Assembly (NCBI GenBank): GCA_904386005.1
Contig: CAJFKR010000002.1
Location: forward strand, 741-64,740
Direction: 5' to 3'
Source of the DNA: Candidatus Flemingiibacterium merdigallinarum
Lineage (GTDB): Bacteria; Bacillota; Clostridia; Oscillospirales; CAG-272
DNA: 64,000 bases
The position numbers were made by a program, and so were the translations under genes. Shown one piece after another: positions 14,101 to 45,731 of this stretch (within the stretch, counting starts at the first letter, position 1; each line of letters starts with the position of its first letter). A model generated the notes under the pieces. That model saw only the letters and a list, made by a program, of their open reading frames with translations, did no database searches and was not told the origin of the DNA.

Positions 14101-14500
14101 TGTAGATCCTAATCCTGACAAAGCAAACGCTACTTGGAAGACCACTGGTGGCAATGTACTGGATGCTGTAAAGGATTTGAATGTTGAAGCTAAGGGTACT
14201 ATTACTCTCTACAAGAGCGGCGACGGTACTGCTACTGGTGTTAGCACTCGTAGCGAAGCAGCTTCCGCTAATTGGACTGCTAAAGTTATGAAGTATGATG
14301 GATTTGATTCCACCGAAATCAAGGGCGTAAATGTTGACGCTACTCTTAAGGACGGTGTTATCACCATCAATGGTTACAAGAACAATCTTGGCAACAAGAC
14401 TGAACTTGCAGCTGGTGATTATGAGATTGTACTTACCTGTGACAACACTACTCCTGATGGTAAGGCAGTAGAAGTTACTTTCACAGTAACCGTTAAATAA
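11177..14500 (+). CDS. SLH-domain cell-wall / S-layer protein
   Basis: It has a signal peptide and N-terminal SLH repeats (FSDVADDSIYAEAIADLVEKGITNG..., FAPHDGIRYQDALIMALRALG). A long Thr/Val/Asp-rich beta-type region follows. Upstream is a strong AAGGAG Shine-Dalgarno site. G+C is visibly lower than in the neighbouring genes. Confidence 0.9.
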   Translation: MRNLKKFLALVLAMLMIVSASAAVSASDFSDVADDSIYAEAIADLVEKGITNGVAEGQFGPDQPVQRFQMALFMARALEPDVDDWMTGMQVFTDVTEWYGAIAYAYVNNIVTGMGNNLFAPHDGIRYQDALIMALRALGYKVDVSGDPYWLEAYNQAQALGLTKGVEVYVGEQVLTRAETAQIIYNMLYTTPADGGATIAAKNFGEATAANTTTMVVTATPKQAYAESYKAAEEGYLGLQTVVNGLPAGDVLYLPAAVLGVDADDVEAYFGYSFDFVNYDAENGSFDNVMIGEDPVVVYSTDVTKNSNEKITIDGTAYYTVDEFEGAALKNEIVVYNAGDLAYLQKVLYTDKDGNVVNSNGDIVARYSHKSSDGTKFYLDLAANVIITEEAALAKYGIDVADDSYIKYSTLSAKDLDEIGNYQLTLFDDDRDGKFERAIVTNVYMSAFKAKDSGKETFGPMKDEKDVVYTEDLTKGEVFTYTYNSQTKVVTVLDVLDINYGTLTKIDTTKVGDKVVKLTIDGEVYTVANADLAKKTGATIYDYNSNGFDNIAKEAQLGYADYKDLTIGSAIAYYEYNGYIINAKTYPIDEAFDRVVIDQIVSYDSENVYADLYIGGKLVSNVAISNVEGTKISSMNIFQLSRLLSDDAWNRGNVFKAVKLSDGSYQISEELVLSGDDKNVVDFKLVTETFGTVVSFEDGIADIYNSDNTIERDRVIRSDEKTVFYFLKKNDEGKVVSIATFVGAADNSSIDFTGSDKPVIYADKIGYGNNDSYTDGKVNGVASFVLVYYTDSNDISGFGVANIDYSTVYVVNNTDKVKAYEAASAEELGLVGSEYTGKYFVRYTADGLAVDMSTGKKVNTIYVEVGKEIEADNFYVLSVDNVVLFNKKANVTGAVLKANGFTDARYWTITDVDGKKIVNNTVDKVSSVYLTADTAIDVKTSAKDVLTDGKAYTVKYVPNFTDGTFVGIVVKSSDSVDPNPDKANATWKTTGGNVLDAVKDLNVEAKGTITLYKSGDGTATGVSTRSEAASANWTAKVMKYDGFDSTEIKGVNVDATLKDGVITINGYKNNLGNKTELAAGDYEIVLTCDNTTPDGKAVEVTFTVTVK

Positions 14501-14518
14501 TCACTCATCGTGATTTCT

Positions 14519-14550
14519 CCCCCGCTCCCATTCGGGAGCGGGGATTTTTT
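14519..14550 (+). terminator. intrinsic terminator of the SLH gene
   Basis: The stem is ccccgctccc / gggagcgggg with an attc loop, followed by ATTTTTT. Confidence 0.85.
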
Positions 14551-14554
14551 ATAT

Positions 14555-14580
14555 AAAAAAAGAGCGGCGCTGTGCCGCTC
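14555..14580 (-). terminator. intrinsic terminator of mazF (minus strand)
   Basis: The stem is gagcggc / gccgctc, followed on the minus strand by TTTTTTT. Confidence 0.8.
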
Positions 14581-14612
14581 GTAATATTTATATGCCATTG
14601 CGCATATATTTG

Positions 14613-14960
14613 TCAATTACTCGTATCTGTTTCCTCTCTGCTGATTTCTAATATGAGGATGCTTAGAACTTCTTCCAATATGTCATAAGGGATTTGTTCG
14701 ATATAACGATAGGTTCTTTGGCTTAAATCCATTGTTCGTATTTGCTCACACATAATAAATCCGGTTGTAGAACAGCGGCTGTCAAGGGCAACATGAAATG
14801 GATTGTTTCTTTGCGTATTTGTGATGGGACAGAGTATTGTCAGATTGCAATTTGCATTATAAAAGTCGTTGCTCACTACTAAGGCAGGTCTGCGTCCGGC
14901 TTGTTCATGCCCTATCTGAGGGTCAAAGCTGACTATAATAATGTCGCCTTGCTTTACCAT
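14613..14960 (-). CDS. mazF: MazF/PemK family type II toxin (endoribonuclease)
   Basis: The N-terminus KQGDIIIVSFDPQIGHEQAGRRPALVV closely parallels E. coli MazF (GDLIWVDFDPTKGSEQAGHRPAVV). Its start overlaps the mazE stop codon (ATGGTAA). Confidence 0.9.
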   Translation of the reverse strand: MVKQGDIIIVSFDPQIGHEQAGRRPALVVSNDFYNANCNLTILCPITNTQRNNPFHVALDSRCSTTGFIMCEQIRTMDLSQRTYRYIEQIPYDILEEVLSILILEISREETDTSN

Positions 14961-15184
14961 ACTTCATCCCCCACCGGCGCGCCCCAATCGACTTCTTCTT
15001 CGACAACTTTTCCAGTAAAGCCGCGCGCCGCGAATAATTCTTTCAAGCTGTCATAACGTTTCGTTGTCTTCGTTATTACGATTTTGCCGTCAGACACGTC
15101 AACTGACACATTGTCGTCAATACTGATCCGCGCCGAATCGAGAATAGCTTTGGGTATGCTCCATTTTTGTATGTTCGTGGTCAT
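14954..15184 (-). CDS. mazE: MazE (AbrB/SpoVT-fold) antitoxin
   Basis: The C-terminus VDWGAPVGDEVW parallels E. coli MazE (IDWGEPKDKEVW). GAGGTG lies 6 nt upstream of the ATG. Confidence 0.85.
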   Translation of the reverse strand: MTTNIQKWSIPKAILDSARISIDDNVSVDVSDGKIVITKTTKRYDSLKELFAARGFTGKVVEEEVDWGAPVGDEVW

Positions 15185-15204
15185 GTTATCACCTCACTTG
15201 GTTT

Positions 15205-15245
15205 GTTTATATAGTATATACTATTATCTCGCTGTTGTCATTTTT
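15205..15245 (-). promoter_or_regulatory. mazEF promoter with a palindromic operator
   Basis: On the minus strand the layout is ATGACA, 17 nt, then TATACT. The palindrome TAGTATATACTA overlaps the -10 box. The 23-nt core at 15208-15230 is identical to 15668-15690. Confidence 0.65.
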
Positions 15246-15626
15246 ATGGCGGTGGCTATATATTTTGTGCTGATATTCGGAATCGTATTTCGCTAAAAGA
15301 TATAAGCAGTATTGATTAAAGCTGATACCCTCGGCGCGTGAGTGCTCGGCAAGTGATTTGTGCAGTGATTTCGGCACCGTGAGCCGGAATTGTCCGGAGT
15401 ATTCGTTTTGCGGCGTCGGCTCGGGAATGTCAATGCCGTCTTCAATAGCCGCGGAGAGCCACTCGCGCTTGCAGTCAATTGCCGATTTCATTGCTTCTTC
15501 CATAGTGTCCGCACAACTTATGCAGCCTGGCAGCTCCGGAAAACATACCGCGAACCCACCCTCGGCAGCGTCCGGTATTATCTCCATGCGGTAGGGGAGC
15601 TGCATATATTCGTCAATTGTTCGCAT
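15207..15626 (-). CDS. hicB: HicB family antitoxin with a C-terminal ribbon-helix-helix domain; no hicA partner seen
   Basis: The HicB core is YRMEIIPDAAEGGFAVCFPELPGCISCADTMEEAM and the RHH-like tail is FRLTVPKSLHKSLAEHSRAEGISFNQY. ATG 15626 is preceded by GGAGGA; the ORF track starts at 15644. Confidence 0.8.
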   Translation of the reverse strand: MRTIDEYMQLPYRMEIIPDAAEGGFAVCFPELPGCISCADTMEEAMKSAIDCKREWLSAAIEDGIDIPEPTPQNEYSGQFRLTVPKSLHKSLAEHSRAEGISFNQYCLYLLAKYDSEYQHKIYSHRHKNDNSEIIVYTI

Positions 15627-15664
15627 CTGTTTCCTCCATTTCATACATTGTTTTGATTTATATT

Positions 15665-15705
15665 GTATATATAGTATATACTATTATCTCACAATTGTCA
15701 ATACA
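15665..15705 (-). promoter_or_regulatory. hicB promoter with the same palindromic operator
   Basis: On the minus strand the layout is TTGACA, 17 nt, then TATACT. It carries an identical 23-nt core, tatatagtatatactattatctc. Confidence 0.65.
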
Positions 15706-15721
15706 CATTATGTAAATTCAC

Positions 15722-15759
15722 ATAAGAATAAACCCGAGCGGTAGTCTACCGCTCGGGTT
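15722..15759 (-). terminator. intrinsic terminator after the yhaN-like gene
   Basis: A 14-bp stem, aacccgagcggtag / ctaccgctcgggtt, is followed on the minus strand by TATTCTTAT. Confidence 0.7.
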
Positions 15760-15770
15760 CATAATTATAC

Positions 15771-17957
15771 TTACATCTTGATCAGCTTGAATTCGCCCAG
15801 CGCGCGCATCGCGTCCGCGTCGCGGCTGTTCGACGTCAGGATTATGCTTTGTTCCTGCGTCGCGACTATGCGCAGTAGTATCGCCAGACGCTTGTCGTCG
15901 ATGTGCGCGAAGCTCTCGTCGAATATCATCGGCGGGGCGCATTTCGTGAATACCAGCCGGGTCAGCGCGAATCGCAGACAGAGATACGCCGCGTCGCGTG
16001 TGCCCGTGCTCAAGAAATTAATCGACTTCGTGCCGTTATCGGTGAGCGCCGACAGCTCAAGCTCGCCGCCGACTCCGACCTCTGTGTACTTTCCTCCGGT
16101 CACCGCGCCGAGCAGCTTCGACGCGTCGGCTGACAGCCGCGGCGATACGCTCCGGCGCAGATTTTCGCTCGCTTCGACCAGCTTGTCATACGCGAGCAGA
16201 TACGCCGCGTGCTTCGCGCGCAGTGACTCGCGTTCGCGCTTCAGCGACTCGAGCCGGTCTGATAGCTTCGCAGGATTCTCGCTCACCGGATAGAGTCCGG
16301 CAAGCTCCTTCTCGGTCGCGTTCGCCGCGACTCCGAGCGATGCTGAGCTCTTCTCGCAGAAGTCAGCCAGCCGCTTCATGTCGTTGTAGTTAGCCTTGTC
16401 AATGTCCGAAATGTCAATCGACATATCGACCGCGGCAGTGACGTCGGCTTCGTTGTAGCGCGACAGCTGCTCGCGCATCTCGCCGAGCCGCTCCGAGCTC
16501 TTGTCGTACTCGGCCTTCAGACTTTCCGCCGAGCCGAGCTGCGATGTGAGCTCATTAAGACGCGCGGTCAGTGCCGCCGTTATGTCGTCGTCCGACGCGC
16601 CTGTGAGCCCCAGCTCGCGCGACAGGTTGGCGATGAATTCCTCGTACCGCTTCTTTGCTTCGTCGCGTGCGCGAGCCGCGTATTTCGCGGTCTCCTCGGC
16701 TTCGCAGCGAGCCGCGAGCTCGTTTTCGAGTGTATCCACGTCGAATTCCTCGTACAGCTTCGCTGCCGCGCTCCGACTTCGCGCCGACAATATGAACAGC
16801 GTCACGCCGATCGCGGCTATGACCGCGCCGATGACCGCGATCAGCTTCGGCAGTATCGACGGCAGCAGGAATGGCAGCACTGCCGCGACCACGCCTATGA
16901 CCAAAGTCGCCGCCGCGCCGAACGCGAATGCCGACGACTTCGACTTGAGCGTGCTGTATTCGGCGTTGATTCCGTCCGCGCCGCCGCGCCGCGTATATTC
17001 GTCGAGCTTCGAGTCGAGCTGCGGGTCGCGCGGCGGCAGGCTGTCGTCGGCGCAGGCAGCCTCGGCGGCGTCATAATCACTGCGCAGGGACGCAAACCGC
17101 TCGCTCTCGCTGCGCAGCTTATTGATAAGCTCGGGATCCGGCGCGCCCGACGCGTCGATTTTCTGCCGCAGCTCGGCGGTCTGCTGCTCGTATTCGTGCA
17201 TCCGCTTGAAAAAGCGGGCGATCGTGCGCAGCTCGAACTGCGACAGCTTCCGTCGGAGCAGCTCGGCTTTTTTACTGTTGTCGCTCGCGTTTTTGCGCAG
17301 GTCGGCGAGCTTCGATTCCTTTTTCGCGATCTCATCATGATTTTTCAGCGCGTTCGCGAGCCTGCCCTCAAGCTCGGCGCACTCGGTGTCGAGCTCGTAC
17401 AGCCGCCCGCCACTGCCGTTTTTATGCAGCAGCTTCACCCGCGCCGCGTCGAGCTTGGACAACGCGCGCTGTGTGTTCACCGTCTCGTCTGCTGAAAACA
17501 GCAGATTCTCGATTCCCTCGGCGACCTTCGCGCCGCCGGTCGAATTCCCGAGCTGCGACACGAATGCCGTCGCCGCGAACATATCCGCGTCGGGACCGAA
17601 GAACAGCTCGCCCGGTGACTCACCTTTGTGACAGGGGCTGTTGTCGGCAAGGTCGATTATTTGCAGCGACTCGCGGAAGGACTGCCGCTCGCCGTTCGGC
17701 GTCAGCGACCGCTCGACGCGGTAGCGATGCCCGTCGACGCTGAATGTGAGCGAGCCGTCGGCGCGGCTGTCGCTCCAGCTGGCATAAGCGGCGCGCTCTT
17801 TTGCCGGTATGCCGTAGAAGATGAATTTGATGAAGGCGCAGAGCGTCGATTTGCCGCTCTCGTTCTCGCCCTCGATGATGTTGACGCCCGGCGACAATTC
17901 GAGCTCGTAGTCTCGCAGCCTGCCGAAAGCTTTGATGTTCAGTTTTTCTATTATCAT
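15771..17957 (-). CDS. YhaN-like AAA / Rad50-SbcC-type ATPase with a membrane hairpin in the coiled coil
   Basis: The N-terminal Walker A context is IIEGENESGKST. Long Ala/Glu/Lys/Leu-rich coiled-coil regions follow. Two hydrophobic helices lie mid-protein. The C-terminal signature and Walker B region is LSTGTRDAAYLCLRFAL...PPMIFDESFAHID. Confidence 0.8.
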   Translation of the reverse strand: MIIEKLNIKAFGRLRDYELELSPGVNIIEGENESGKSTLCAFIKFIFYGIPAKERAAYASWSDSRADGSLTFSVDGHRYRVERSLTPNGERQSFRESLQIIDLADNSPCHKGESPGELFFGPDADMFAATAFVSQLGNSTGGAKVAEGIENLLFSADETVNTQRALSKLDAARVKLLHKNGSGGRLYELDTECAELEGRLANALKNHDEIAKKESKLADLRKNASDNSKKAELLRRKLSQFELRTIARFFKRMHEYEQQTAELRQKIDASGAPDPELINKLRSESERFASLRSDYDAAEAACADDSLPPRDPQLDSKLDEYTRRGGADGINAEYSTLKSKSSAFAFGAAATLVIGVVAAVLPFLLPSILPKLIAVIGAVIAAIGVTLFILSARSRSAAAKLYEEFDVDTLENELAARCEAEETAKYAARARDEAKKRYEEFIANLSRELGLTGASDDDITAALTARLNELTSQLGSAESLKAEYDKSSERLGEMREQLSRYNEADVTAAVDMSIDISDIDKANYNDMKRLADFCEKSSASLGVAANATEKELAGLYPVSENPAKLSDRLESLKRERESLRAKHAAYLLAYDKLVEASENLRRSVSPRLSADASKLLGAVTGGKYTEVGVGGELELSALTDNGTKSINFLSTGTRDAAYLCLRFALTRLVFTKCAPPMIFDESFAHIDDKRLAILLRIVATQEQSIILTSNSRDADAMRALGEFKLIKM

Positions 17958-36441: not shown

Positions 36442-36861
36442 TTGATATTACAATACACCGAATATCCGACGGTGTTTCTCACCGGAGCGGTCGGCTACAG
36501 TCTTATCGAAATCGTCTGGCGCGGCTATACCCACTGGTCGATGGCGCTGACCGGCGGGATTTGCTTTCTGTTTCTCTACATTATCGAGCGCGGTTATAAT
36601 AATGAGCCGCTCTGGAAAAAATGCGCGGCGGGCAGCTTGTTCATAACCAATCTTGAGCTTGTGGTCGGGTTCGTGGTCAACATCCTGCTCGGCTGGGCGG
36701 TCTGGGATTACTCCGACCTCACGTTCAACATCGCCGGACAAATCTGCCCGCTTTATACTGTGCTGTGGTTCGTTCTCTGCTTTCCGGTCAGCCTTGTCTG
36801 TACCGTACTGCGGCGGCTGTACAGTCAGCTCGGCGCGTCGCCCGCGACCTCGATTCGGTAG
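36442..36861 (+). CDS. small polytopic membrane protein (resembles the putative ABC-transporter type IV / DUF1113 family)
   Basis: It has four hydrophobic segments. The start TTG lies 8 nt after GGGAGG. The family assignment is from memory of the YSLIEIVWRG..HWSM pattern. Confidence 0.55.
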   Translation: MILQYTEYPTVFLTGAVGYSLIEIVWRGYTHWSMALTGGICFLFLYIIERGYNNEPLWKKCAAGSLFITNLELVVGFVVNILLGWAVWDYSDLTFNIAGQICPLYTVLWFVLCFPVSLVCTVLRRLYSQLGASPATSIR

Positions 36862-38633
36862 CCGGGGGCGGTCACGAGGTGGCGTATCCTGCCGCCGTAG
36901 AGCGGAACAAGCTCTTTTAAGTGCGTGACCGCGATGAAGTTGACGCCGTGGCGCATGAAATAATTCAGTATGTGATACAGCCCTTCGGCGCCCTCGGAAT
37001 AGGCGGTCGTCTGAAACACCTCGTTTAACAGCAGCAGCGAGTTCGGCTGAATCCTTTCGGCGAGCTGCGAGAGGATGCGCACCTCCTGCTCGAAGCGTCC
37101 GGCGTCGTTGCCCGACACGAACTCCTTTTCGGCTGCGGCGTAGCAGGTGTAGACCGCGCTCAATATCCGCATCCTCGCCGACTCGCAGGGGACGGGAAGT
37201 CCGGCTTGAAACAACAGCTGCGCCGTTCCGACCGAGCGCAGATATACCGTCTTGCCGCTGTTGTTCTCCCCGGTTATCAGTATGCCCGGCACGCCCGCGG
37301 CTTTACTGGAATTATCGTCAGCAGAACCCGTGACAGAAACATTGTCGGCTTGGCTCGCGTCGGAGTCATTGTCGGCTCGGCTTGCGCCGGAGTCATTGTA
37401 GGCTTGGCTTGCGTCGGAGTCATTGTCGGCTCGGCTTGTGCCGGAAACATTGTCAGCTCGGTTCGCGACAGAATCGCTGGTCGGAAAGCAGATGTCGTTC
37501 GGCACTACATCCTTCGCGGCGAGCGCGCGCCCCGCGAGCAAAAGGTCGTACAGCCGCGATATCTCTATTGGCTCGCGCTGATCCGATTCAGGCTCGATTA
37601 TCTCGGGATAGCAGAGCGGCAGCTCTTTTTCCTTTGCCATATTTATGTAGTCGAGCGCGAGCTCGTAGAAGGTCAGCTCGTCGGACAGCCGCGAAAAGCC
37701 TTCGATAAGCTCGCGGACAAAGCCGGACAGGATGTTCGACAGAGTCACATAGGCTTCATATGACAAGCGGTTGCGCAGCCGGCTGCCCGGGTCGGGCAGC
37801 TGCACCCGCCGCTCGATGCGCGTCTCGGGAGCACTTATCTGACCGGCGCGGCGATTATTCGATTTCGCGCCGACATTGCCGGTATTTTCGGCGCGGCTTG
37901 TAATATTGCCGGCAGAATCTCCGGCGGCTTTTTCATGCTTTGACGGCTTCGAGAAAAGCTTCATGATCGACAGCGGCGGCTTTATATTCAGCGGCGACCT
38001 CGTCTCCTCGGAGGGGGTCGATACCCGTCCCGACGCGAATTCAAAGCCGCATACCCGACCGCCGTCGTTTATTTTCAGCCGAACTAACATATTGCCGCCG
38101 TTGGACAACAGCGACGTGATTCGACCGCATATGTCGGCAAGCTCGGACGCGTATTTTGTGCAGCTCTCGGCGTGACGCATAAGCTCGCAGAGTCTCGGCG
38201 ACGTCGGGTGACCGCGGCGCAGAAGCTCGGCTATGCGCACGACGACCTCGAGCGACTTTTCGACGCTGACCGCGAGAAATATCAGCGCGTGCTTCTGATT
38301 TTCCGAGGACGCCTCGCTGTATGTGCCGCGCGACAATGAAGCCGAGCGCGCGCGGTCACGGTTTACCTCGCCGTGCAGTCGCGACAGCTCGTCGAGCTCG
38401 CGCCGCAGCTCGGACAAGAGACTCGGGTTCGAGACGAAGTCGGCGAGCACTTCCCGCCGAAGTACAAGCTCTTCGCGGCTTTGTGACAGATCGGTCAGTA
38501 CCGATAAAAATACGCGCTGGCGTTCGGTGTTCGGACAGAAGTTTGAGACAGTCTCGCTAAGGCGCAGATCGTCGTCGAGCGTCGTGTCGGGCGGCGCGAG
38601 CTCGCGATTGTCAAGACAAATTATACTTATCAT
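36825..38633 (-). CDS. MutS-family ATPase (domain V) paralogue B, lacking mismatch-binding and Smr domains
   Basis: Walker A is ITGENNSGKTVYLRS. The Walker B-like segment is LLLLNEVF (Asn in place of Asp). The His-switch segment is AVTHLKEL. A 5 x 9-aa acidic Ser/Asp repeat sits just before the P-loop. The gene overlaps paralogue A by 4 nt. Confidence 0.8.
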   Translation of the reverse strand: MISIICLDNRELAPPDTTLDDDLRLSETVSNFCPNTERQRVFLSVLTDLSQSREELVLRREVLADFVSNPSLLSELRRELDELSRLHGEVNRDRARSASLSRGTYSEASSENQKHALIFLAVSVEKSLEVVVRIAELLRRGHPTSPRLCELMRHAESCTKYASELADICGRITSLLSNGGNMLVRLKINDGGRVCGFEFASGRVSTPSEETRSPLNIKPPLSIMKLFSKPSKHEKAAGDSAGNITSRAENTGNVGAKSNNRRAGQISAPETRIERRVQLPDPGSRLRNRLSYEAYVTLSNILSGFVRELIEGFSRLSDELTFYELALDYINMAKEKELPLCYPEIIEPESDQREPIEISRLYDLLLAGRALAAKDVVPNDICFPTSDSVANRADNVSGTSRADNDSDASQAYNDSGASRADNDSDASQADNVSVTGSADDNSSKAAGVPGILITGENNSGKTVYLRSVGTAQLLFQAGLPVPCESARMRILSAVYTCYAAAEKEFVSGNDAGRFEQEVRILSQLAERIQPNSLLLLNEVFQTTAYSEGAEGLYHILNYFMRHGVNFIAVTHLKELVPLYGGRIRHLVTAPGYRIEVAGDAPS

Positions 38634-40111
38634 GTAACAAGCCCCTCCGCTTTCAGCTTTTCCTCGAGCGACTGCGCGTCGAGATTATACTTTTTCAGAA
38701 TATCGCGCGCGTAGGACGAAAGGTCGGGCTTTTGTCTGACTATTTTGAACGTGCGCTTTGCGGTATCCTCGCCCATCAATGTGGTAAGGCAGCAGTAGCC
38801 GGCCATGACTACCTCGTGAAAGTGAGTGACCCAGAGCGAAAAGCAGCCGAGCGTCTTTAGCTTATCGGCGGTTTCGAGCGTCAGCTCGGCGCCCTTGCGG
38901 TCGTCGGCGCCCGAGTAGGTTTCGTTCATGAAAACGAAGCTGTCGGCAGTCAGACCGGCGAGTATCGAGTTCACGCGCGCAAGCTCCTCCATGAGCCGAC
39001 CCGAATTCGTGAATTCCTCGTCGGCGGGGAAGTGCGTGACGACTCGGTCGAAGCGGTAGACCGACGCGCGGCGGGCGAATATCGGCGCTCCGCCGAGCGC
39101 GAGCAGCAGGTTTCCGGCGGCGCAGCGCAGATACGCGGTCTTGCCGCCGCCGTTCGCTCCGGTGAGAAAGCAGACGTCCGAGCCGGACGCGGCGTCGAAA
39201 TCGATGTCGTTCGGCACGACCTCGCAGCCCTTTACAAGCAGCGAGAAGTCGCAGGCATCCTCGGCGTAAAACCGCTTGTCCTCGCAAAGCTCGGGATAGA
39301 CTGTCGGAAATCCGGCCGCGCGTCCGCGTTCGATGAGCCGGACAATGTCAAAGCAGAACGACAGCTCACCCTTAAGCGAGAGCGGCGAGTCGTCGAGCCG
39401 AAACTCCCACTCGCCGCGCAGCGCGACGAGCGGGCGCAGGTCGTCGTGGTGAAGCTCGGCGAGCGCGACCGACAGCTCGGCAGGCATACGCAGCTCGTGC
39501 GAGACAACGCGCGGCTTGTACGTGTCGGTCTCGCAGACGAGGCAGAGCCGTTCGGTCAGGTTTTCGTCGATTATGTTTGTGAGCGAAAGCCCGCGCTCGG
39601 TCAGCTCGACTCCGGTGTTCGACAATATTCCGGCAATCCCGTCGCATTCGGCTGCCATCTGTCCGAGTTCATTTTCGATAGCGGCTTTGCTCATAAGCTC
39701 GGACTTCACGGCTATTACCGTTTCCGGCAGGTCGAGCTTATATTCAGCCGCGAGCCGCTCGGCGAGGGCGCAGAGGTCGAGAATGCGGTTATGCGATTCG
39801 AGATGGATTTTGCAGCGTCCGAGAAAGCAGAGGAGCCCCTCGATGCTGTTCGCGGCGTTCTTGAAGGCTGCCACCGACTGCGAATACGCGGACAATGTCT
39901 CGTCGAGCAGCTTCGCCGCGGCGATGAATTCGGGCAGCTCCAGGAGCCGGAAGAGCCGCTGCCGGGCGAGCCGTTCATCCGGCTTCAGCGTGACCAGCAG
40001 GAATTCGACGGTATCGGCTTCGAGCAGACGGGGGAGCATGAGGTCGTCGGCAATGTGCGCGGGGTGAGTCGCGCGTCCGTCGCGGTCATATAAGTACAGC
40101 AGTGAAATCAT
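38630..40111 (-). CDS. MutS-family ATPase (domain V) paralogue A
   Basis: Walker A is LTGANGGGKTAYLRC. The Walker B-like segment is FVFMNETY. The signature-like segment is NSGRLMEEL and the His-switch segment is VTHFHEV. The N-terminal half is helical and has no recognisable mismatch clamp. Confidence 0.8.
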   Translation of the reverse strand: MISLLYLYDRDGRATHPAHIADDLMLPRLLEADTVEFLLVTLKPDERLARQRLFRLLELPEFIAAAKLLDETLSAYSQSVAAFKNAANSIEGLLCFLGRCKIHLESHNRILDLCALAERLAAEYKLDLPETVIAVKSELMSKAAIENELGQMAAECDGIAGILSNTGVELTERGLSLTNIIDENLTERLCLVCETDTYKPRVVSHELRMPAELSVALAELHHDDLRPLVALRGEWEFRLDDSPLSLKGELSFCFDIVRLIERGRAAGFPTVYPELCEDKRFYAEDACDFSLLVKGCEVVPNDIDFDAASGSDVCFLTGANGGGKTAYLRCAAGNLLLALGGAPIFARRASVYRFDRVVTHFPADEEFTNSGRLMEELARVNSILAGLTADSFVFMNETYSGADDRKGAELTLETADKLKTLGCFSLWVTHFHEVVMAGYCCLTTLMGEDTAKRTFKIVRQKPDLSSYARDILKKYNLDAQSLEEKLKAEGLVT

Positions 40112-40126
40112 ATATCGGTCACACTG

Positions 40127-41326
40127 TCATATCGCGGTCACGCCGTCAGAATTTATCAGAAATCCTCCCGGCTTCAGCAGACGTTTTAATTCGGGCTTAT
40201 CGGCGGTGTGGTCGGCGGTGAAGTCGACTATCATGTCGAACGAGCCGGGGATGATATGCGGCGAGTCGACGTCGTCCAGTACGAACTGCATATCGGCGTA
40301 GACCTTTGAATGGAGCGCTTCCTCGACTGCCTTCAGACGCTTGACGTCCGAGTCGAGGACTATGTATTCGACCTCGCGCTGCTTGTCGGTGTAGTAGAAC
40401 TGTGTAACAAAATCAGGGTCGGGCGAGCCGAGCAGGAGTATGAGCTGATACGAATCGAGCCGCAGGCTGATTTCGTCCGCGTTCGGAAGCTTTGTGAGCG
40501 GCGGTATGCGCGCTCCGGACTCATCGTCGATCATGCGCAGAATATTGTCGACATATTCGGGCTTGACGCCGCAGCGGCAGCGGCGGGCGTAGAAGCCGGG
40601 TATCGGCTGCGAGCAGACCGGACAGGTGAAAAGGCTGAACGCGGGTCGGGTCTCGCTGCGCAGGCGCGCGTAGTTGTTGCGCCGCATGATATTCAGCGCG
40701 TCGCCGTCGATGATACCGAACACGACCGCCGATTCGACCGCCGTCTGCGAGTAGCTGCCGAGCAGGTCGAGGAAGTGATAGTCGAGCTCTCCGTCGATTA
40801 TTTTTTGGAAGATGACGTCGGCCGCGTACGGACCGAGCAGCGGCATCAGATGTTCGAGCAGATTCATGTCGGTGTCGGCGAGCGAGTCGAACGACGCCGA
40901 CTGCATGAGCTTGCCGGTGTCGGTTTCGTTCAGATATTCGGCGAGCGACAGCAGGTGCGATATATTCAGTCCCTGCTTTGACAGGCTCTCGGCGAGCTTG
41001 TTTAGGACGCTCGGCTTGAACAGCGGCGCGAGGTTGACGACATCCTCGGCGTTTGTCGGCGAGACGTCCTGACCCTTAGCGACGGCGTCGAGTATCTCGG
41101 CCTCGCCGCGGCTGGGCGTTCCCGAGCCGATAAGCGTGTCGACCGTGACTCCGAATATCTCGGCGAGCTTGCCGAGCACGGTCACGTCCGGGAAGCTCTC
41201 GCCGCACTCGTAACGCGATATTGCCTGACGCGTAAGTCCGAGCCTGTCTCCGAGCTCCGACTGCGTCATATCGGCGGCCTTTCTGAGACTTGCGATATAT
41301 GAGCCGAATTTTGCGGTATCAAACAT
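40127..41326 (-). CDS. XRE-family helix-turn-helix protein with a zinc ribbon and a C-terminal methyltransferase-like remnant
   Basis: The HTH is MTQSELGDRLGLTRQAISRYECGESFP. The Cys4 motif is CPVCSQ...CRCG. The tail is GSFDMIVDF...LKPGGFLI. ATG 41326 follows AAAGGA; GTG 41344 is an alternative. Confidence 0.8.
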   Translation of the reverse strand: MFDTAKFGSYIASLRKAADMTQSELGDRLGLTRQAISRYECGESFPDVTVLGKLAEIFGVTVDTLIGSGTPSRGEAEILDAVAKGQDVSPTNAEDVVNLAPLFKPSVLNKLAESLSKQGLNISHLLSLAEYLNETDTGKLMQSASFDSLADTDMNLLEHLMPLLGPYAADVIFQKIIDGELDYHFLDLLGSYSQTAVESAVVFGIIDGDALNIMRRNNYARLRSETRPAFSLFTCPVCSQPIPGFYARRCRCGVKPEYVDNILRMIDDESGARIPPLTKLPNADEISLRLDSYQLILLLGSPDPDFVTQFYYTDKQREVEYIVLDSDVKRLKAVEEALHSKVYADMQFVLDDVDSPHIIPGSFDMIVDFTADHTADKPELKRLLKPGGFLINSDGVTAI

Positions 41327-41434
41327 ATTTTTCAGTCCTTTCACAGAATTTTATGCTACCATTATACCACAACTTCGGGCAAATAACAAGCAATAATTTC
41401 GTGCATATGTATGCGGTGATATTAATAATACGGC

Positions 41435-41904
41435 GGGCTGAATGATAGTCGGGATGGCGGGCTGAATGGCAGTCGGAATTGCGGGCTGAATGTAGTTGGA
41501 ACGACGGACTGAATGGCAGTCGGAATTGCGGGCTGAATGATAGTTGGAACAGCGAGCTGAATGGCAGTCGGGACAGCGAGCTTAATGTAGCTGGAACAGC
41601 GGACTGAATATAGTTGGAACGATGGGTTGAATGACAGTCGGAACGATGGGCTGAATGATAGTCTGAACGGCGAGCTGAATGGCAGTCGTGACAGTAGGCT
41701 GAATGGTAGTCTGAACAGCGGGCTGAATGACAGTCGGAACGATGGGCTGAATGATAGTCGGGACAGCGGACAGAATGACAGTCGTAACGACGGACTGAAT
41801 TAAGTCGTGACAGTGGGCTGAATTTAGTCGTGACAGCGGGCGTAATGACAGTTGTAACAGCAGGCTGAATGGTTGTTTGATTGGCAGGGATTACAGCAGG
41901 AATT
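41435..41904. repeat. degenerate 23-24-bp tandem array, about 19-20 units (consensus GGGCTGAATGRYAGTCGGAACRRC)
   Basis: I parsed the units consecutively by eye. Stop codons occur in all frames. The array lies between the spoIVA terminator cluster and the HTH gene. Confidence 0.9.
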
Positions 41905-41948: not shown

Positions 41949-42072
41949 ATAATAAAAGGAATTCGCCGCAGGCGAATTCCTACCACAGCTCTCCTGCTCC
42001 GCCTACAGCGGAGCAGGAGACCACTCTCCACTCTCTGCTTTGCAAAGCAAAGCAGACCACTCTCCACTCTTA
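41949..42072 (-). terminator. three-hairpin modular element downstream of spoIVA; the last hairpin is a T-tailed terminator
   Basis: The hairpins are at 42034-42056, 41990-42020 and 41958-41980. The last one is ggaattcgcc/gcgaattcc followed on the minus strand by TTTTATTAT. They are separated by the conserved linkers ACCACTCTCCACTCT and CCACAGCTCT. Confidence 0.7.
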
Positions 42073-42096: not shown

Positions 42097-43575
42097 TTAA
42101 AGTATAATACAGATGAGCCCTCCGCTGCCCTCGTTGATGATGCGGGCGAGCGTCTCGGACAGCTTCGCCCTCGCGTCGTCCGGCATATGGTCGAGCTTGG
42201 TGTGCAGCCCCTCGTTGACCAGCTCGTATAGGGTCTTGCCGAATAGGTTCGAGTCCCAGATCTTCTTCGGGTTCTCCTCGAATTCCTTCAGCATATACTT
42301 GACCAGCTCCTCCGATTGCTGCTCGGTGCCGACTACCGGACTGATTTCAGTCTCGATTTCAGCCTTGATCATGTGTATGCTCGGCGCGGACGCGCGCAGG
42401 CGGACGCCATATCCGCCCGACTGCTTGACAATCTCCGGCTCCTCGAGCTTGAGGTCGTCAATCTCGGGCGTGACTATGCCGTATCCCTTCTTCTCAACCT
42501 CGTCGAGCGCTTCGGCGACCCGGTCGTATTTCTCCTTCATCCCCGCAAGCTCGCGCAGCAGAGTTATCAGCTTCTCCTCACTCGATATGTCAAACCCGCA
42601 GAGCTCGCTGATCGTCTTGTAATATAGCCCGTCGCAGAGCTCGACCGTCAGCGACGCCCTGCCTTTGCCAAGGTCGATTTTGTCCACCTTGACCGACTTT
42701 ACGATATCGCTTTGTCCGACGTCGGTGAAGACGCGCGAGATTTCGCCTATCTTTGTCACCGCCGACGCGCGTTCCATTATAAAGTCGTTCAGTTCGCCGC
42801 GCAGACTGTGCGTCACTTCGAGCGCGTTCAGCCAGTCGGGCAGCTTCACATTGATTTCACAGACCGGGAACTCGCACAGCACCAGCTCGAGTATATGTCT
42901 GATGTCGTCGCTGTCAAGCTCAAGACAGTTGACGAGCGCGACCGGAGCGCCGTATTTTTCTTCAAGCTTATACGCGAGGCTGACCGCGGTGTCGCTGCGC
43001 GGATTCGCTGAATTTAAGATTATCGCGAACGGCTTGTTTATCTCCTTTAGCTCGCGGACGACCCGCTCCTCGGCTTCGACGTAATTTTCACGCGGCAGCT
43101 CGCCTATCGTGCCGTCGGTAGTGACGAGCATACCGACGGTCGAGTGCTCGTTTATGACCTTGCGCGTGCCGAGCTCGGCGGCTTCAATGAACGGCATCGG
43201 CTCGGACTGCCACGGCGTGTGTACCATGCGCGGATGCCCGTCCTCGATATGTCCTATAGCGTCGGGGATTATGTATCCGACGCAGTCGATGATTTTGACT
43301 TTCATCACGGCGTTGTCGGCGAGAGTTATCTCGACCGCTTCGTCGGGGATGAACTTTGGCTCGGTCGTCATGACCGTCTTGCCGGCCGCGCTCTGCGGCA
43401 TCTCGTCGCGGGCGCGCTCGCGCTCGTTTTCGTCGCGGATGTTCGGGATGACGAGCGCTTCCATGAATTTTTTGATAAATGTGGATTTTCCGGTGCGCAC
43501 CGGTCCGATAACTCCGAGATAGAAGGTATTCGCGGTGCGCTCGGCTATATCCTTGTAGATTGAGGTATCAGCCAT
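42097..43575 (-). CDS. spoIVA: stage IV sporulation protein A
   Basis: The N-terminus is IYKDIAERTANTFYLGVIGPVRTGKSTFIKKFME. The length of 492 aa and overall collinearity match SpoIVA. Confidence 0.95.
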   Translation of the reverse strand: MADTSIYKDIAERTANTFYLGVIGPVRTGKSTFIKKFMEALVIPNIRDENERERARDEMPQSAAGKTVMTTEPKFIPDEAVEITLADNAVMKVKIIDCVGYIIPDAIGHIEDGHPRMVHTPWQSEPMPFIEAAELGTRKVINEHSTVGMLVTTDGTIGELPRENYVEAEERVVRELKEINKPFAIILNSANPRSDTAVSLAYKLEEKYGAPVALVNCLELDSDDIRHILELVLCEFPVCEINVKLPDWLNALEVTHSLRGELNDFIMERASAVTKIGEISRVFTDVGQSDIVKSVKVDKIDLGKGRASLTVELCDGLYYKTISELCGFDISSEEKLITLLRELAGMKEKYDRVAEALDEVEKKGYGIVTPEIDDLKLEEPEIVKQSGGYGVRLRASAPSIHMIKAEIETEISPVVGTEQQSEELVKYMLKEFEENPKKIWDSNLFGKTLYELVNEGLHTKLDHMPDDARAKLSETLARIINEGSGGLICIIL

Positions 43576-44043: not shown

Positions 44044-44685
44044 ATGAGCATTCTCAATGAAATTTCCGAAAACCTCCAGAAGGGTAAGGCAAAGATCGTA
44101 AAGCAGCTGGTACAGCAGGCTATCGACGAAAAGGTGCCGGTTGACGAGATACTCAATCAGGGTCTGCTCGACGGTATGAGCGTGATCGGCGAAAAGTTCA
44201 AGAACAACGAGGTGTTCGTGCCCGAGGTTCTCGTAGCGGCGCGCGCTATGAACGCCGGCGTCGAGCTTATCAAGCCGCTGCTCGCAGCCGCAGGCGTAAA
44301 GGCTACCGGCCGCGTCTGCATCGGAACCGTCCGCGGAGACCTGCACGACATCGGCAAGAACCTTGTCAAGATGATGCTCGAGGGCAAGGGTCTTGAGGTT
44401 ATCGACCTCGGTACCGACGTCTCGCCCGACACGTTCGTTCAGACCGCGATCGACCAGAACTGCCAGATCATCTGCTGCTCGGCTCTGCTCACGACCACGA
44501 TGTCCGAGATGGAGAACGTCGTCAAGAAGGCTACCGAGGCCGGAATCCGCGACAAGGTCAAGATCATGATCGGCGGCGCGCCGGTAACTCAGGCGTTCTG
44601 CGACCAGATCGGCGCTGACTGCTACACGCCCGACGCGGCGAGCGCGGCTGACGCTGCCGCTGAATTCTGCAAGGCGATGGCATAA
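44044..44685 (+). CDS. corrinoid (cobalamin-binding) protein of a methyltransferase system
   Basis: The B12-binding DxHxxG motif is GDLHDIGKNLV. The protein has an N-terminal helical cap and a Rossmann-like C-terminus (KIMIGGAP). AAGGAG lies upstream. Confidence 0.9.
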   Translation: MSILNEISENLQKGKAKIVKQLVQQAIDEKVPVDEILNQGLLDGMSVIGEKFKNNEVFVPEVLVAARAMNAGVELIKPLLAAAGVKATGRVCIGTVRGDLHDIGKNLVKMMLEGKGLEVIDLGTDVSPDTFVQTAIDQNCQIICCSALLTTTMSEMENVVKKATEAGIRDKVKIMIGGAPVTQAFCDQIGADCYTPDAASAADAAAEFCKAMA

Positions 44686-44708
44686 AGCGGCCTCGGTATT
44701 TCTCCGAT

Positions 44709-45731
44709 ATGGCAGAAAGACAGAATATGAGAGCGTGGCTTGATTCACAGCTGCGCTCTAAGGTTAAACGAGCGATGCCGGTGCTGTCCTTTCCGGCAGT
44801 GCAGCTCATGGGCATAAGCGTCCGCGAGCTGATTTCGGACAGCGACGCGCAGGCGCGCGGTATGAAGCTGGTCGCCGACCGAATCGATTCGGCGGCTTCG
44901 GTCAGTCTGATGGATCTGTCGGTCGAAGCCGAGTGCTTCGGCTCGACGATACGCGTGTCGGACGACGAGGTGCCGACCGTAGTCGGCGCGGTCGTACATG
45001 ACGAGGACGAGGCAAGGGCGCTTGAGGTTCCGAAGGTCGGCGCGGCTCGTTCGGGGCTGTATGTCGACGCGATGAGAAAGGCGGTCGGGCTGATTTCGGA
45101 TCGTCCGGTGTTCGCCGGCGTCATAGGTCCGTTCTCGCTCGCGGCGAGACTGCTCGACGTCACCGAGATCATGGTGGACTGCTACGACGAGCCGGACATG
45201 GTACACATAGTCCTCGACAAGGCGGCACAATTCCTCACCGAATACTGTCTTGCCTATAAAGCGACCGGAGCGAACGGCGTCGTCGTCGCCGAGCCGGTGG
45301 CGGGGCTTCTGTCGCCGTCGCTCGCCGAGGAATTCGCCGCGCCCTACATCAATCGGATAATCGACGCGGTGCAGGACGACGAATTCATCGTCATATACCA
45401 CAACTGCGGCAACGCGGTGCCGAATCTGCTCGACACGATATATTCAATCGGCGCGTCGGCCTATCATTTCGGCAACGCGGTCGACATGGCCGACATCCTG
45501 TCGCGCACGCCCGACGACATCATCGTCATGGGCAACATCGACCCCGCAGGAGAGTTCCGTCAGGGCACTCCCGAATCCATGCGCAAGGCAGTGCTCGAGC
45601 TGCTCGAAAAATGCGCTCCGGCGCATCCGAACTTCATCATATCGTCCGGATGCGACATTCCTCCGCTCTCGAAGTGGGAGAACATCGACGCGTTCTTCGC
45701 GGCGGTGCGGGAATACTATGGTAGTTGTTAG
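44709..45731 (+). CDS. uroporphyrinogen-decarboxylase-family methyltransferase (MtaA/CmuA-like)
   Basis: It is URO-D-fold collinear (PVLSFPAVQLMG..., IYHNCGN..., ISSGCDIPP). Its position next to the corrinoid protein fits this role. Confidence 0.8.
   Translation: MAERQNMRAWLDSQLRSKVKRAMPVLSFPAVQLMGISVRELISDSDAQARGMKLVADRIDSAASVSLMDLSVEAECFGSTIRVSDDEVPTVVGAVVHDEDEARALEVPKVGAARSGLYVDAMRKAVGLISDRPVFAGVIGPFSLAARLLDVTEIMVDCYDEPDMVHIVLDKAAQFLTEYCLAYKATGANGVVVAEPVAGLLSPSLAEEFAAPYINRIIDAVQDDEFIVIYHNCGNAVPNLLDTIYSIGASAYHFGNAVDMADILSRTPDDIIVMGNIDPAGEFRQGTPESMRKAVLELLEKCAPAHPNFIISSGCDIPPLSKWENIDAFFAAVREYYGSC

Follow-up and report, generated by a model that had tools for sequence, protein, structure and literature searches.

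MutS4 was defined as a subfamily of MutSac-only proteins that are encoded by adjacent genes, MutS4A and MutS4B, with the stop codon of the A gene overlapping the start codon of the B gene, and whose function was unstudied (Lin et al. 2007, PMC2190696). According to a later study, a MutS4 pair of Mycobacterium yongonense lies in an island together with enolase, NADH-dehydrogenase and hydrogenase genes, and the MutS4 operon, when put into Mycobacterium smegmatis, led to more homologous recombination (Kim et al. 2017, PMC5742357). Here, we report an analysis of a related locus in a 64,000-nucleotide stretch of contig CAJFKR010000002.1 from Candidatus Flemingiibacterium merdigallinarum, a chicken-gut member of the Clostridia (the whole of this stretch is referred to below as the window). 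The locus consists of three minus-strand genes that encode, in the order of transcription, an XRE-family helix-turn-helix (HTH) regulator and two paralogous ATPases of the MutS family, denoted A and B.

Other members of the MutS family provide further points of comparison. MutS2 is a ribosome-collision sensor and a suppressor of recombination, and it widened the functions of the family beyond repair in 2022. The MutS2 proteins of Bacillus subtilis and Thermus resemble A and B in lacking domains I and II, in combining a lever/clamp part with an ATPase core, and in matching A over the full length in structure and profile comparisons, but they differ in forming homodimers and in carrying C-terminal KOW and Smr nuclease domains and an Asp-Glu Walker B motif, none of which is found here; the C-terminus of A is a helix-turn-helix tail, and in B the chain stops with the ATPase. 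MutS1 and the eukaryotic MSH proteins share the composite-site ABC ATPase, include asymmetric paralogue heterodimers (MSH2-MSH3/6), and yield the best matches in the Protein Data Bank (PDB). The differences are that the proteins described here have neither domain I nor the connector domain II, contain Asn in place of the Mg-coordinating Asp (D693 in Escherichia coli MutS), and possess only a rudimentary, acidic clamp. KamC (NCBIfam NF052383), a MutS-like ATPase named as the reactivase of lysine 5,6-aminomutase, is the best NCBIfam match of B, over the ATPase domain, but the scores are 48-64 bits against a cut-off of 300 bits, and there are no kamDE or lysine-fermentation genes nearby.

The reading that we tentatively favor, and to which we give somewhat less than an even chance, is that of an autoregulated sigma-A operon in which an XRE factor is combined with a MutS4-like asymmetric heterodimeric ATPase that would act as a switch on nucleic-acid structure and not on mismatches. 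The identity and architecture of the proteins are well supported, and the analysis documents the anatomy and homology of the genes, the match of the A model to a MutS fold along its whole length, a gene order and a promoter palindrome that are conserved across loci, and evidence of expression and co-transcription; the substrate, the biological role, the heterodimer and the autoregulation are what we infer.

Domain architecture and ancestry of the A/B pair

The only Pfam match is MutS_V, both in A (residues 315-435) and in B (residues 451-577), and neither protein matches Smr or KOW in this database. Domains I and II are absent from both by Pfam and NCBIfam, and matches by structure and profile begin at the lever region. 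The NCBIfam models of MutS1 score 37-59 bits on A and B against cut-offs of 480-642, and the MutS2 model TIGR01069 scores 36-55 bits against a cut-off of 400. By Pfam, structure and profile alike, A and B thus contain what defines MutS4, a MutSac ATPase, with or without MutSd, that lacks MutS-I and MutS-II. Because domains I and II are missing, the pair is not a mismatch-repair enzyme, and it carries no nuclease.

The original prediction, which was made from the sequence alone, correctly held that the paralogues lack mismatch-binding and Smr domains, as Pfam confirms; its description of the N-terminal halves as merely divergent helical regions is superseded. Homology between A and B starts at residue 1 and extends through the whole ATPase (hhalign probability of 100 over 443 columns). 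The AlphaFold2 model of A, built with 43 homologues, has a mean predicted local distance difference test (pLDDT) score of 90.5, and its best PDB matches in Foldseek are MutS, MSH2/3/6 and MutS2 chains, aligned over 485-603 columns with E about 1e-17. Furthermore, a search with the sequence profile of the A family picks up MSH3 and MutS2, in alignments that begin at profile position about 66-102 and run to about 430-475. Taken together, the full-length homology, the end-to-end match of the A model and the profile match indicate that the N-terminal halves of A and B are most likely the lever/clamp part of MutS (domains III/IV) with a small beta-hairpin tip, as modeled, and not a new fold. The C-terminal SSYAxDILKKYxL helix-turn-helix tail, which is typical of MutS proteins, is kept in A and missing from the whole B family.

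All the ATPase motifs that had been quoted for the two paralogues are present in the translations: the P-loops TGANGGGKT and TGENNSGKT, the signature-like segments SGRLMEEL and AGRFEQEV, the switch segments THFHEV and THLKEL, and the Walker B segments FMNETY and LLNEVF. The last of these indeed read Asn-Glu instead of Asp-Glu in both paralogues, and this pair of residues is invariant in the alignments of the A and B families.

Homologues of A and B number in the hundreds, are about 480-500 aa long, come almost exclusively from uncultured gut and rumen Clostridia, and are either unnamed or called 'MutS-related protein'. A profile of A recovers 1,824 clusters at 50% identity with E<=1e-30, and among the GTDB representatives retrieved, which do not include the species of the window, A is 44% identical in the best locus. 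In about 70-80 loci from different Clostridia species, wherever the contig is long enough, B comes next after A in the same orientation, in most cases overlapping it, so that the side-by-side A/B order of MutS4 is found in the window as well as in the loci of other species.

A tblastn search of plasmids with A uncovered paired genes in Mycobacterium, Rhodococcus, Rubrobacter, Alicyclobacillus, Burkholderia and Enterobacteriaceae. The plasmid pairs inspected (loci L085-L090, from Actinomycetota, Pseudomonadota and Bacillota) consist of overlapping A and B genes for proteins of about 500 aa each, which have the motif set of the window pair, Asn-Glu included. Identity between A or B and the plasmid proteins is 25-38%, with BLAST alignments that cover mainly the C-terminal half; in these comparisons, A is slightly nearer to the products of the first plasmid genes, and B is clearly nearest to those of the second. 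In a neighbor-joining tree (441 columns, 200 bootstraps, custom distance calculation), A groups with the plasmid first genes with 83% support and B with the second genes with 83.5%, the window family forms its own clades with 100% support, and monophyly of A and B receives 0%. This topology indicates that the duplication that gave rise to A and B is older than the split between the two groups of pairs and places the window pair in a sister clade. Judged by sequence, the window pair is probably a member of a previously undescribed, Clostridia-specific sister clade of MutS4A/MutS4B-type pairs, with the plasmid pairs taken to be the MutS4 of Lin et al. on account of their architecture and of the mycobacterial island described by Kim et al. 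(2017).

The mention of MutS4-type adjacent pairs in the original prediction agrees with the published definition of MutS4A/MutS4B (PMC2190696), and its proviso that the proteins might fall into a MutS subfamily with a defined function does not apply, MutS4 being a subfamily without one. The window pair shares with MutS4A/MutS4B the ATPase without domains I/II, the fixed A-then-B order, the overlap of the A stop with the B start and the undefined function and, via the plasmid MutS4-type pairs, the grouping in the tree at about 83% bootstrap and the Asn-Glu Walker B. The differences are that A keeps the switch His here and B is devoid of the C-terminal tail, that the family is confined to metagenome-assembled genomes of Clostridia, and that a protein factor would take the regulatory place of a riboswitch.

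The genomic setting of the plasmid pairs is distinctive. All six of the inspected plasmid loci are fluoride-resistance islands with eno, ppa, crcB, DUF190, cation/proton antiporter, USP and P-type ATPase genes. An Rfam fluoride riboswitch (RF01734) lies directly upstream of the first MutS gene in three of these (L085:5131-5191, L087:5140-5201 and L090:5093-5157), and in another, it is located upstream of the operon (L086:3112-3172). The crcB motif was reported upstream of 'mutS' genes in 2010 (Weinberg 2010, PMC2864571), beyond which we found nothing on fluoride and MutS in the open literature; fluoride is not mentioned in the covered passages of the account of the M. yongonense island (Kim et al. 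2017, PMC5742357).

It could be proposed that the window pair retains the fluoride-stress role of its sister clade and is only regulated differently. The plasmid pairs are the nearest relatives outside the Clostridial family found in annotated records, the first and second genes group with A and B, respectively, and the Asn-Glu Walker B is shared; the plasmid pairs are preceded by fluoride riboswitches and surrounded by eno, ppa, crcB and DUF190, and the crcB motif has been reported upstream of mutS (PMC2864571). However, the riboswitches and fluoride genes are lacking around the window pair and the searched Clostridial loci. An Rfam scan of the whole window matched no family, fluoride riboswitch included, and a purpose-built covariance model, derived from 12 plasmid riboswitches and recovering five of five sites in the two control loci L085 and L087, detected no fluoride riboswitch in either the window or the set of about 80 Clostridial loci. 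A tblastn search with 12 fluoride-island proteins (among them crcB, eno, ppa, DUF190, antiporter and USP) found no homologue near any Clostridial locus, and A retains the switch His that was lost from the plasmid first-gene proteins. A conserved fluoride role is, accordingly, very improbable. As a separate observation, the gene immediately after the pair in L098, in the same orientation, is a Voltage_CLC gene (12302-13900), the sole neighbor of an ion-channel or fluoride type seen in the clade.

The Asn-Glu Walker B is common to four groups of proteins (A, B, and the products of the plasmid first and second genes), whereas MutS, MSH2 and other PDB relatives have Asp-Glu; the structure of the E. 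coli MutS D693N mutant outscores the wild type against the A profile. Both composite ATP sites retain the Walker A Lys, the Walker B Glu and the switch His, and the Mg-coordinating Asp is replaced by Asn. This combination leads us to predict a switch that works by binding ATP, hydrolyzes it slowly and handles Mg in an altered way. In the reading that we favor, A and B most likely assemble as an asymmetric heterodimeric ABC ATPase that is made of lever/clamp-like and domain V parts only and that would clamp and release a nucleic-acid structure, such as branched or recombination DNA, in an ATP-driven manner.

The same architecture is also compatible with a non-DNA substrate. Under this alternative, the heterodimer would remodel stalled ribosomes or RNA polymerase, or a protein/cofactor complex, as a stress ATPase similar to MutS2 or KamC. 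The architecture is that of the MutS2 core, with Foldseek and profile matches to MutS2 that include the ribosome-bound structure 7qv3; KamC is the best NCBIfam match of B, and MutS-family genes occur in lysine-fermentation clusters (PMC3149608); the clamp-like tips are acidic; and the genes co-regulated with the sister clade are those of enolase, pyrophosphatase and ion transporters and not those of DNA repair. Conversely, the KOW and Smr domains of MutS2 are absent here, KamC reaches no more than 64 of the required 300 bits and aminomutase genes are not found nearby, an association with ribosomes has no support, and most characterized MutS relatives bind DNA. We consider this alternative unlikely.

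B differs from A in two inserts, the second of which contains an in-frame coding repeat that varies between strains (Table 1). Among relatives of 82-95% identity, B ranges from 566 to 645 aa; one strain in metagenome run X9 has 81 extra nt in the repeat; and the B protein of locus L093 is 523 aa long, without insert 2.

The regulator, its promoter and the transcription unit

The three open reading frames of the original prediction are all present on the minus strand, as are the 15-nt gap between the HTH gene and A and the 4-nt ATGA overlap between A and B (Table 1). The first frame does extend to a GTG at 41344, for 405 aa, but this is not the true start: the N-terminal 'MFDTxKFG' that begins at ATG 41326 is nearly invariant across homologues, and this ATG is preceded, at a distance of 9 nt, by the ribosome-binding site AAAGGA. 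The ribosome-binding site of B inside the 3' end of A, together with the ATGA overlap, points to translational coupling of B to A. No obvious Shine-Dalgarno sequence is found in the 15-nt spacer between the regulator and A. A 19-nt direct duplication (GTGACCGCGATATGA / GTGACCGATATATGA) spans the regulator stop and the A start at 40108..40148.

Table 1. Features of the locus and its immediate surroundings (positions in the window)
Feature	Positions	Strand	Description
Regulator gene	40127..41326	-	399 aa from ATG 41326
XRE HTH	41135..41296		Residues about 11-64; Pfam HTH_3, E 2e-14
Conserved helical domain of regulator			Residues about 67-226
CPxC...CxC zinc ribbon	40541..40645		Residues about 228-262; conserved Cys4 in alignment
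Class-I SAM-methyltransferase-like Rossmann domain, truncated and degenerate	40130..40480		Residues about 283-399
Paralogue A gene	38630..40111	-	493 aa, MutS4A-like
A, parts			Lever/clamp-like half 1-270; ABC ATPase 271-462; C-terminal SSYAxDILKKYxL helix-turn-helix tail 463-493
Paralogue B gene	36825..38633	-	602 aa, MutS4B-like
B, parts			A-like architecture minus C-terminal tail; two lineage-specific inserts of low complexity (residues about 216-275 and about 384-449)
27-nt in-frame coding tandem repeat	37336..37467	-	9-aa units rich in D, S, N, A; B insert 2, just upstream of P-loop
B ribosome-binding site GGAGGGG	38642..38648	-	Within 3' end of A; read directly from sequence
A stop/B start overlap ATGA	38630..38633	-	4 nt; read directly from sequence
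Sigma-A-type promoter	41361..41389	-	TTGTTA, 17-nt spacer, TG-extended TATAAT (TGgTATAAT)
Operator-like palindrome GCAC-N7-TTGC	41390..41404		Abuts -35 box, center about -43; one mismatch to GCAA-N7-TTGC
24-nt tandem array	41433..41871		Consensus CATTCAGCCCGCTGTTCCGACTAT on gene strand; about 18.5 copies, 439 bp, non-coding
spoIVA intrinsic terminator	41957..41981	-	11-bp stem then T-run; upstream limit of transcription unit
spoIVA (upstream neighbor)	42097..43575	-	Identity via Pfam annotation of syntenic genes in loci L001, L092, L093, L095
CmpB-family membrane protein gene	36442..36861	+	Convergent with B

Pfam, the alignment, the AlphaFold2 model and Foldseek bear out the earlier description of the first gene product as an HTH followed by a Cys4 ribbon and a truncated tail resembling an S-adenosylmethionine (SAM) methyltransferase. 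The model (pLDDT 86) consists of the XRE HTH, a helical domain, a Cys-bearing beta-ribbon and a Rossmann domain. In Foldseek, the tail aligns with class-I SAM methyltransferases over 111-126 columns with a root-mean-square deviation (rmsd) of about 3 A, and Pfam methyltransferase models, including Methyltransf_25, remain below the cut-off. Although the Rossmann fold is present, the tail has no intact glycine-rich SAM-binding motif I; the family reads LILLLGSPDPD, compared with the intact VVLDLGCGLG of the relative P0310, and the domain is truncated. Given the degenerate motif I and the truncation, the tail is most likely, on the model, a non-catalytic sensor or interaction domain. The degenerate motif also casts doubt on the NCBI name of P0247, the 398-aa regulator of locus L001, 'DNA (cytosine-5-)-methyltransferase', which looks like a misannotation. 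The regulator family comprises a long form of about 398 aa, as in the window, and a short form of about 225 aa that consists of the HTH and the helical domain alone.

The regulator shares with XRE autoregulators (lambda cI, restriction-modification C-proteins, RNPP) the N-terminal Cro/C1-type HTH, which matches the restriction-modification controller C.BclI with an rmsd of 1.7 A in Foldseek, and a palindrome next to the -35 box in its own promoter, at about -43; resemblance to RNPP regulators is weak, with a template-modeling (TM) score of about 0.15-0.2 in Foldseek. For lambda cI at PRM, too, the site adjoins the -35 box at about -43. The difference from these autoregulators is that the regulator described here ends in the Cys4 ribbon and the degenerate SAM-methyltransferase fold.

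The predicted promoter is the top match of a scan of the region (10 of 12 positions plus the TG extension) and is located downstream of the spoIVA terminator; an equivalent promoter architecture is found in L001, L007 and L030. The exact palindrome GCAA-N7-TTGC occupies the matching place upstream of the HTH gene in L001, L016, L021, L030, L055, L096 and L097. Of 49 matches to this motif in 1.17 Mb, nine lie <=160 nt upstream of 14 regulator genes. The window palindrome can be regarded as the putative operator of the regulator, and the two marks of an XRE autoregulator, the Cro/C1-type HTH and a conserved palindrome in its own promoter, are both present at the sequence level. Across about 165 nt, from the last two array repeats through the ATG, the window and L092-L095 are about 99% identical, even though identity over the operon itself is no more than about 80% between the window and L093 and about 80-96% across the five loci. 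Two more small palindromes occur in the block 41300..41470, TATTAATA at 41420..41427 and GCATA-CA-TATGC at 41403..41414; within the latter, CATACA-T resembles a sigma-E -10 box.

Contigs from chicken-gut metatranscriptomes, which derive from related strains, cross the junction of the HTH gene with A (39664..41334) as well as that of A with B (37402..39589). The metatranscriptome contigs end at 41331..41375, whereas DNA contigs extend to 41491 or further, into or through the array, which is consistent with a single transcript that starts at the predicted promoter, for which the expected start is near 41354. We envisage a single sigma-A-driven operon for an XRE transcription factor and two translationally coupled MutS paralogues, in which the regulator HTH would most likely bind the GCAA-N7-TTGC-type palindrome by the -35 box and so regulate its own operon, with the zinc ribbon and the degenerate methyltransferase-like domain as a predicted sensor or interaction module.

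The tandem array upstream of the promoter is real, but it measures 439 bp and not 470 bp as originally given. It includes 17 near-consensus copies, compared with 0.03 expected by chance; no long open reading frame was found within it, and no RNA contig covers it. Arrays at the same position in close relatives have 11.6, 12.5 and 7.5 copies, metagenome DNA contigs of other strains skip 96-333 nt within the array, and it is absent from all loci outside the close relatives. Along with the coding repeat in B, it is one of two hypervariable repeats at this operon. The array is best read as a clade-specific repeat of variable copy number upstream of the promoter that is not part of the conserved system. 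It was considered as a binding array for the regulator and rejected because it is found in close relatives only, varies in copy number and does not contain the conserved palindrome.

The position of the operon directly downstream of spoIVA raises the question of a role in sporulation. SpoIVA is encoded next to it in the window, L092, L093 and L095, and within <=5 kb in L001. However, a terminator separates spoIVA from the operon, the promoter is of the sigma-A type, the linkage is lost in nearly all other loci, and in L001, spoIVA and the operon are divergent with four genes between them, all of which makes a sporulation function extremely unlikely. A link to corrinoid or B12 metabolism, suggested by the KamC match and by the B12-binding and URO-D genes at 44044..45731, was dropped because spoIVA intervenes and because these genes are linked to the pair in the close clade only.

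At the other end of the locus, the 3' end of B overlaps the CmpB-family gene by 37 nt (36825..36861), a layout also seen in L092, L093 and L095, and we detected no terminator that would separate the two in the window. In L001, a CmpB-family gene is likewise the convergent downstream neighbor, but without an overlap with B. Elsewhere in the window, a low-GC stretch (11177..17957; 0.42-0.45, compared with about 0.56) codes for a 1107-aa protein with an N-terminus that is S-layer-homology-like by eye. This is followed by what appears by eye to be a HicB-like antitoxin (15207..15644, minus strand) and by a gene (15771..17957, minus strand) for a P-loop ATPase of 728 aa, SbcC/YhaN-like by eye, whose hydrophobic segments may span the membrane.

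Partner genes, evolutionary rate and candidate roles

The proposed synteny of the three genes holds in other genomes as far as A and B are concerned, which are together essentially everywhere; the HTH gene joins them in a subset alone. An XRE-HTH gene lies upstream of the pair in about 11 of about 77 GTDB loci and in L092-L097, and HTH-A-B operons recur at 36-49% identity of A. In 27 loci, A is instead preceded by a gene for a protein of about 190 aa with an N-terminal membrane helix, often after a gene for a 553-aa sigma-70-region-4 protein; the remaining loci have neither the XRE-HTH nor the membrane-protein gene upstream. Its absence from most pair loci means that the HTH gene is not an obligate partner of the pair. 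By hhalign, there is no homology among the XRE protein, the sigma-like protein and the 190-aa membrane protein.

In the alternative operon, for which L048 (2964-8090), L071, L052, L069 and about 23 more loci are examples, the genes for the 553-aa sigma-like protein, the membrane protein, A and B all overlap. The membrane protein has conserved C-D...K-L-F residues and no significant sequence match in Pfam or the PDB; judging from a faint CoiA_nuc hint, it might be a PD-(D/E)xK-like nuclease. In L003 (1-3150, minus strand), a second, different operon, which is separated by 4 kb from the HTH-A-B operon that this genome also carries, encodes an HTH_3 protein of 354 aa, proteins of 133 and 163 aa and a MutS_V protein of 520 aa, with DUF559 (Vsr-like) genes downstream.

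Comparison of the window with L093 (4520-7572) reveals rapid evolution of the pair. Identity is 95-99.5% for the flanking proteins (98.6% for SpoIVA and 99.5% for the corrinoid protein), compared with 91.7% for the regulator, 76.0% for A and 77.5% for B. Among differing codons, the nonsynonymous-to-synonymous ratio is 0.02-0.3 in the flanks and reaches about 0.9 in A and B. The changes in A cluster in the lever helices, with 42-68% identity over residues 41-160, compared with 88-92% in the ATPase. Either relaxed constraint or diversifying selection on a recognition surface would account for the fast change of the levers, and the latter possibility keeps a role in defense or conflict alive.

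Such a role would make the pair the sensor or motor of an anti-phage or anti-plasmid defense module, with the variable upstream genes (XRE, or the sigma-like and 190-aa membrane proteins) as its regulators or effectors. Along with the fast evolution of A and B relative to their neighbors and its concentration in the lever region, the swapping of upstream partners between lineages fits this proposal, as do a faint CoiA nuclease-like match (E 0.13) in 2 of 25 members of the membrane-protein family, the second HTH/MutS_V operon and nearby DUF559 genes of L003, and the frequency of XRE regulators beside defense systems (PADLOC RmrA/capH-type HTH matches). Against it, PADLOC yields no match for B, only mad8 at E 0.005 in the P-loop region for A, and generic HTH matches for the regulator; the operon includes no effector domain, and neither Pfam nor the PDB gives a significant match for the membrane protein. 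Relatives down to 44% identity of A keep the locus in an unchanged housekeeping context (spoIVA ... CmpB), no empty site was seen among four metagenomes, and searches of phages and plasmids gave distant partial matches only, with A in tblastn against phages retrieving 14 weak matches to the ATPase domain, mostly in unannotated records. A defense function is improbable.

Returning to the autoregulated operon with a MutS4-like switch on nucleic-acid structure, several points weigh against it. The heterodimer is predicted from the gene order and translational coupling only, and DNA binding by A and B is likewise a prediction. The clamp-like tips are acidic on average, with net charges of -2.2 and -3.0 for the two families, so that DNA binding is neither supported nor excluded by them. 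Non-DNA roles have precedents within the family: KamC, the best NCBIfam match of B, is a MutS-family ATPase named for such a role, and MutS2, with PDB 7qv3 among the matches of the A model, acts on collided ribosomes. On the side of regulation, the HTH gene is missing from most pair loci, and a site centered at about -43 could serve activation as well as repression. Finally, the Logan RNA contigs come with no strand and might reflect contaminating DNA, and E. coli MutS is the sole outgroup of the tree.

A wider and rather doubtful possibility would unite the two clades. Under it, MutS4-like heterodimers with the Asn Walker B would be an ancient, non-mismatch stress machine, made by its altered Mg site into a metal-fluoride-tolerant, ATP-gated switch that is run by fluoride riboswitches on plasmids of several phyla and was rewired to protein regulators in gut Clostridia. 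These regulators would be the XRE/pseudo-methyltransferase sensor or the sigma-like factor with the membrane protein, and they would respond to a different signal; the target of the machine might be stalled replication, transcription or translation complexes, not mismatches.

MutS4 was defined in 2007, and in the open literature, we found one functional study since then (Kim et al. 2017). To this subfamily, the present analysis adds a large Clostridial sister clade of MutS4-type pairs. The shared derived change from Asp to Asn in the active site of both subunits in both clades offers a concrete biochemical hypothesis, and the operon of the Clostridial clade now has a predicted operator and a sensor-bearing regulator. 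It also shows that plasmid MutS4-type pairs of several phyla are placed behind fluoride riboswitches, in contrast to the Clostridial clade, the link between 'mutS' and the riboswitch itself having been noted in 2010 (PMC2864571). If the pair truly is a non-DNA or fluoride-tolerant ATPase switch, the functions of the MutS family would be widened beyond repair.

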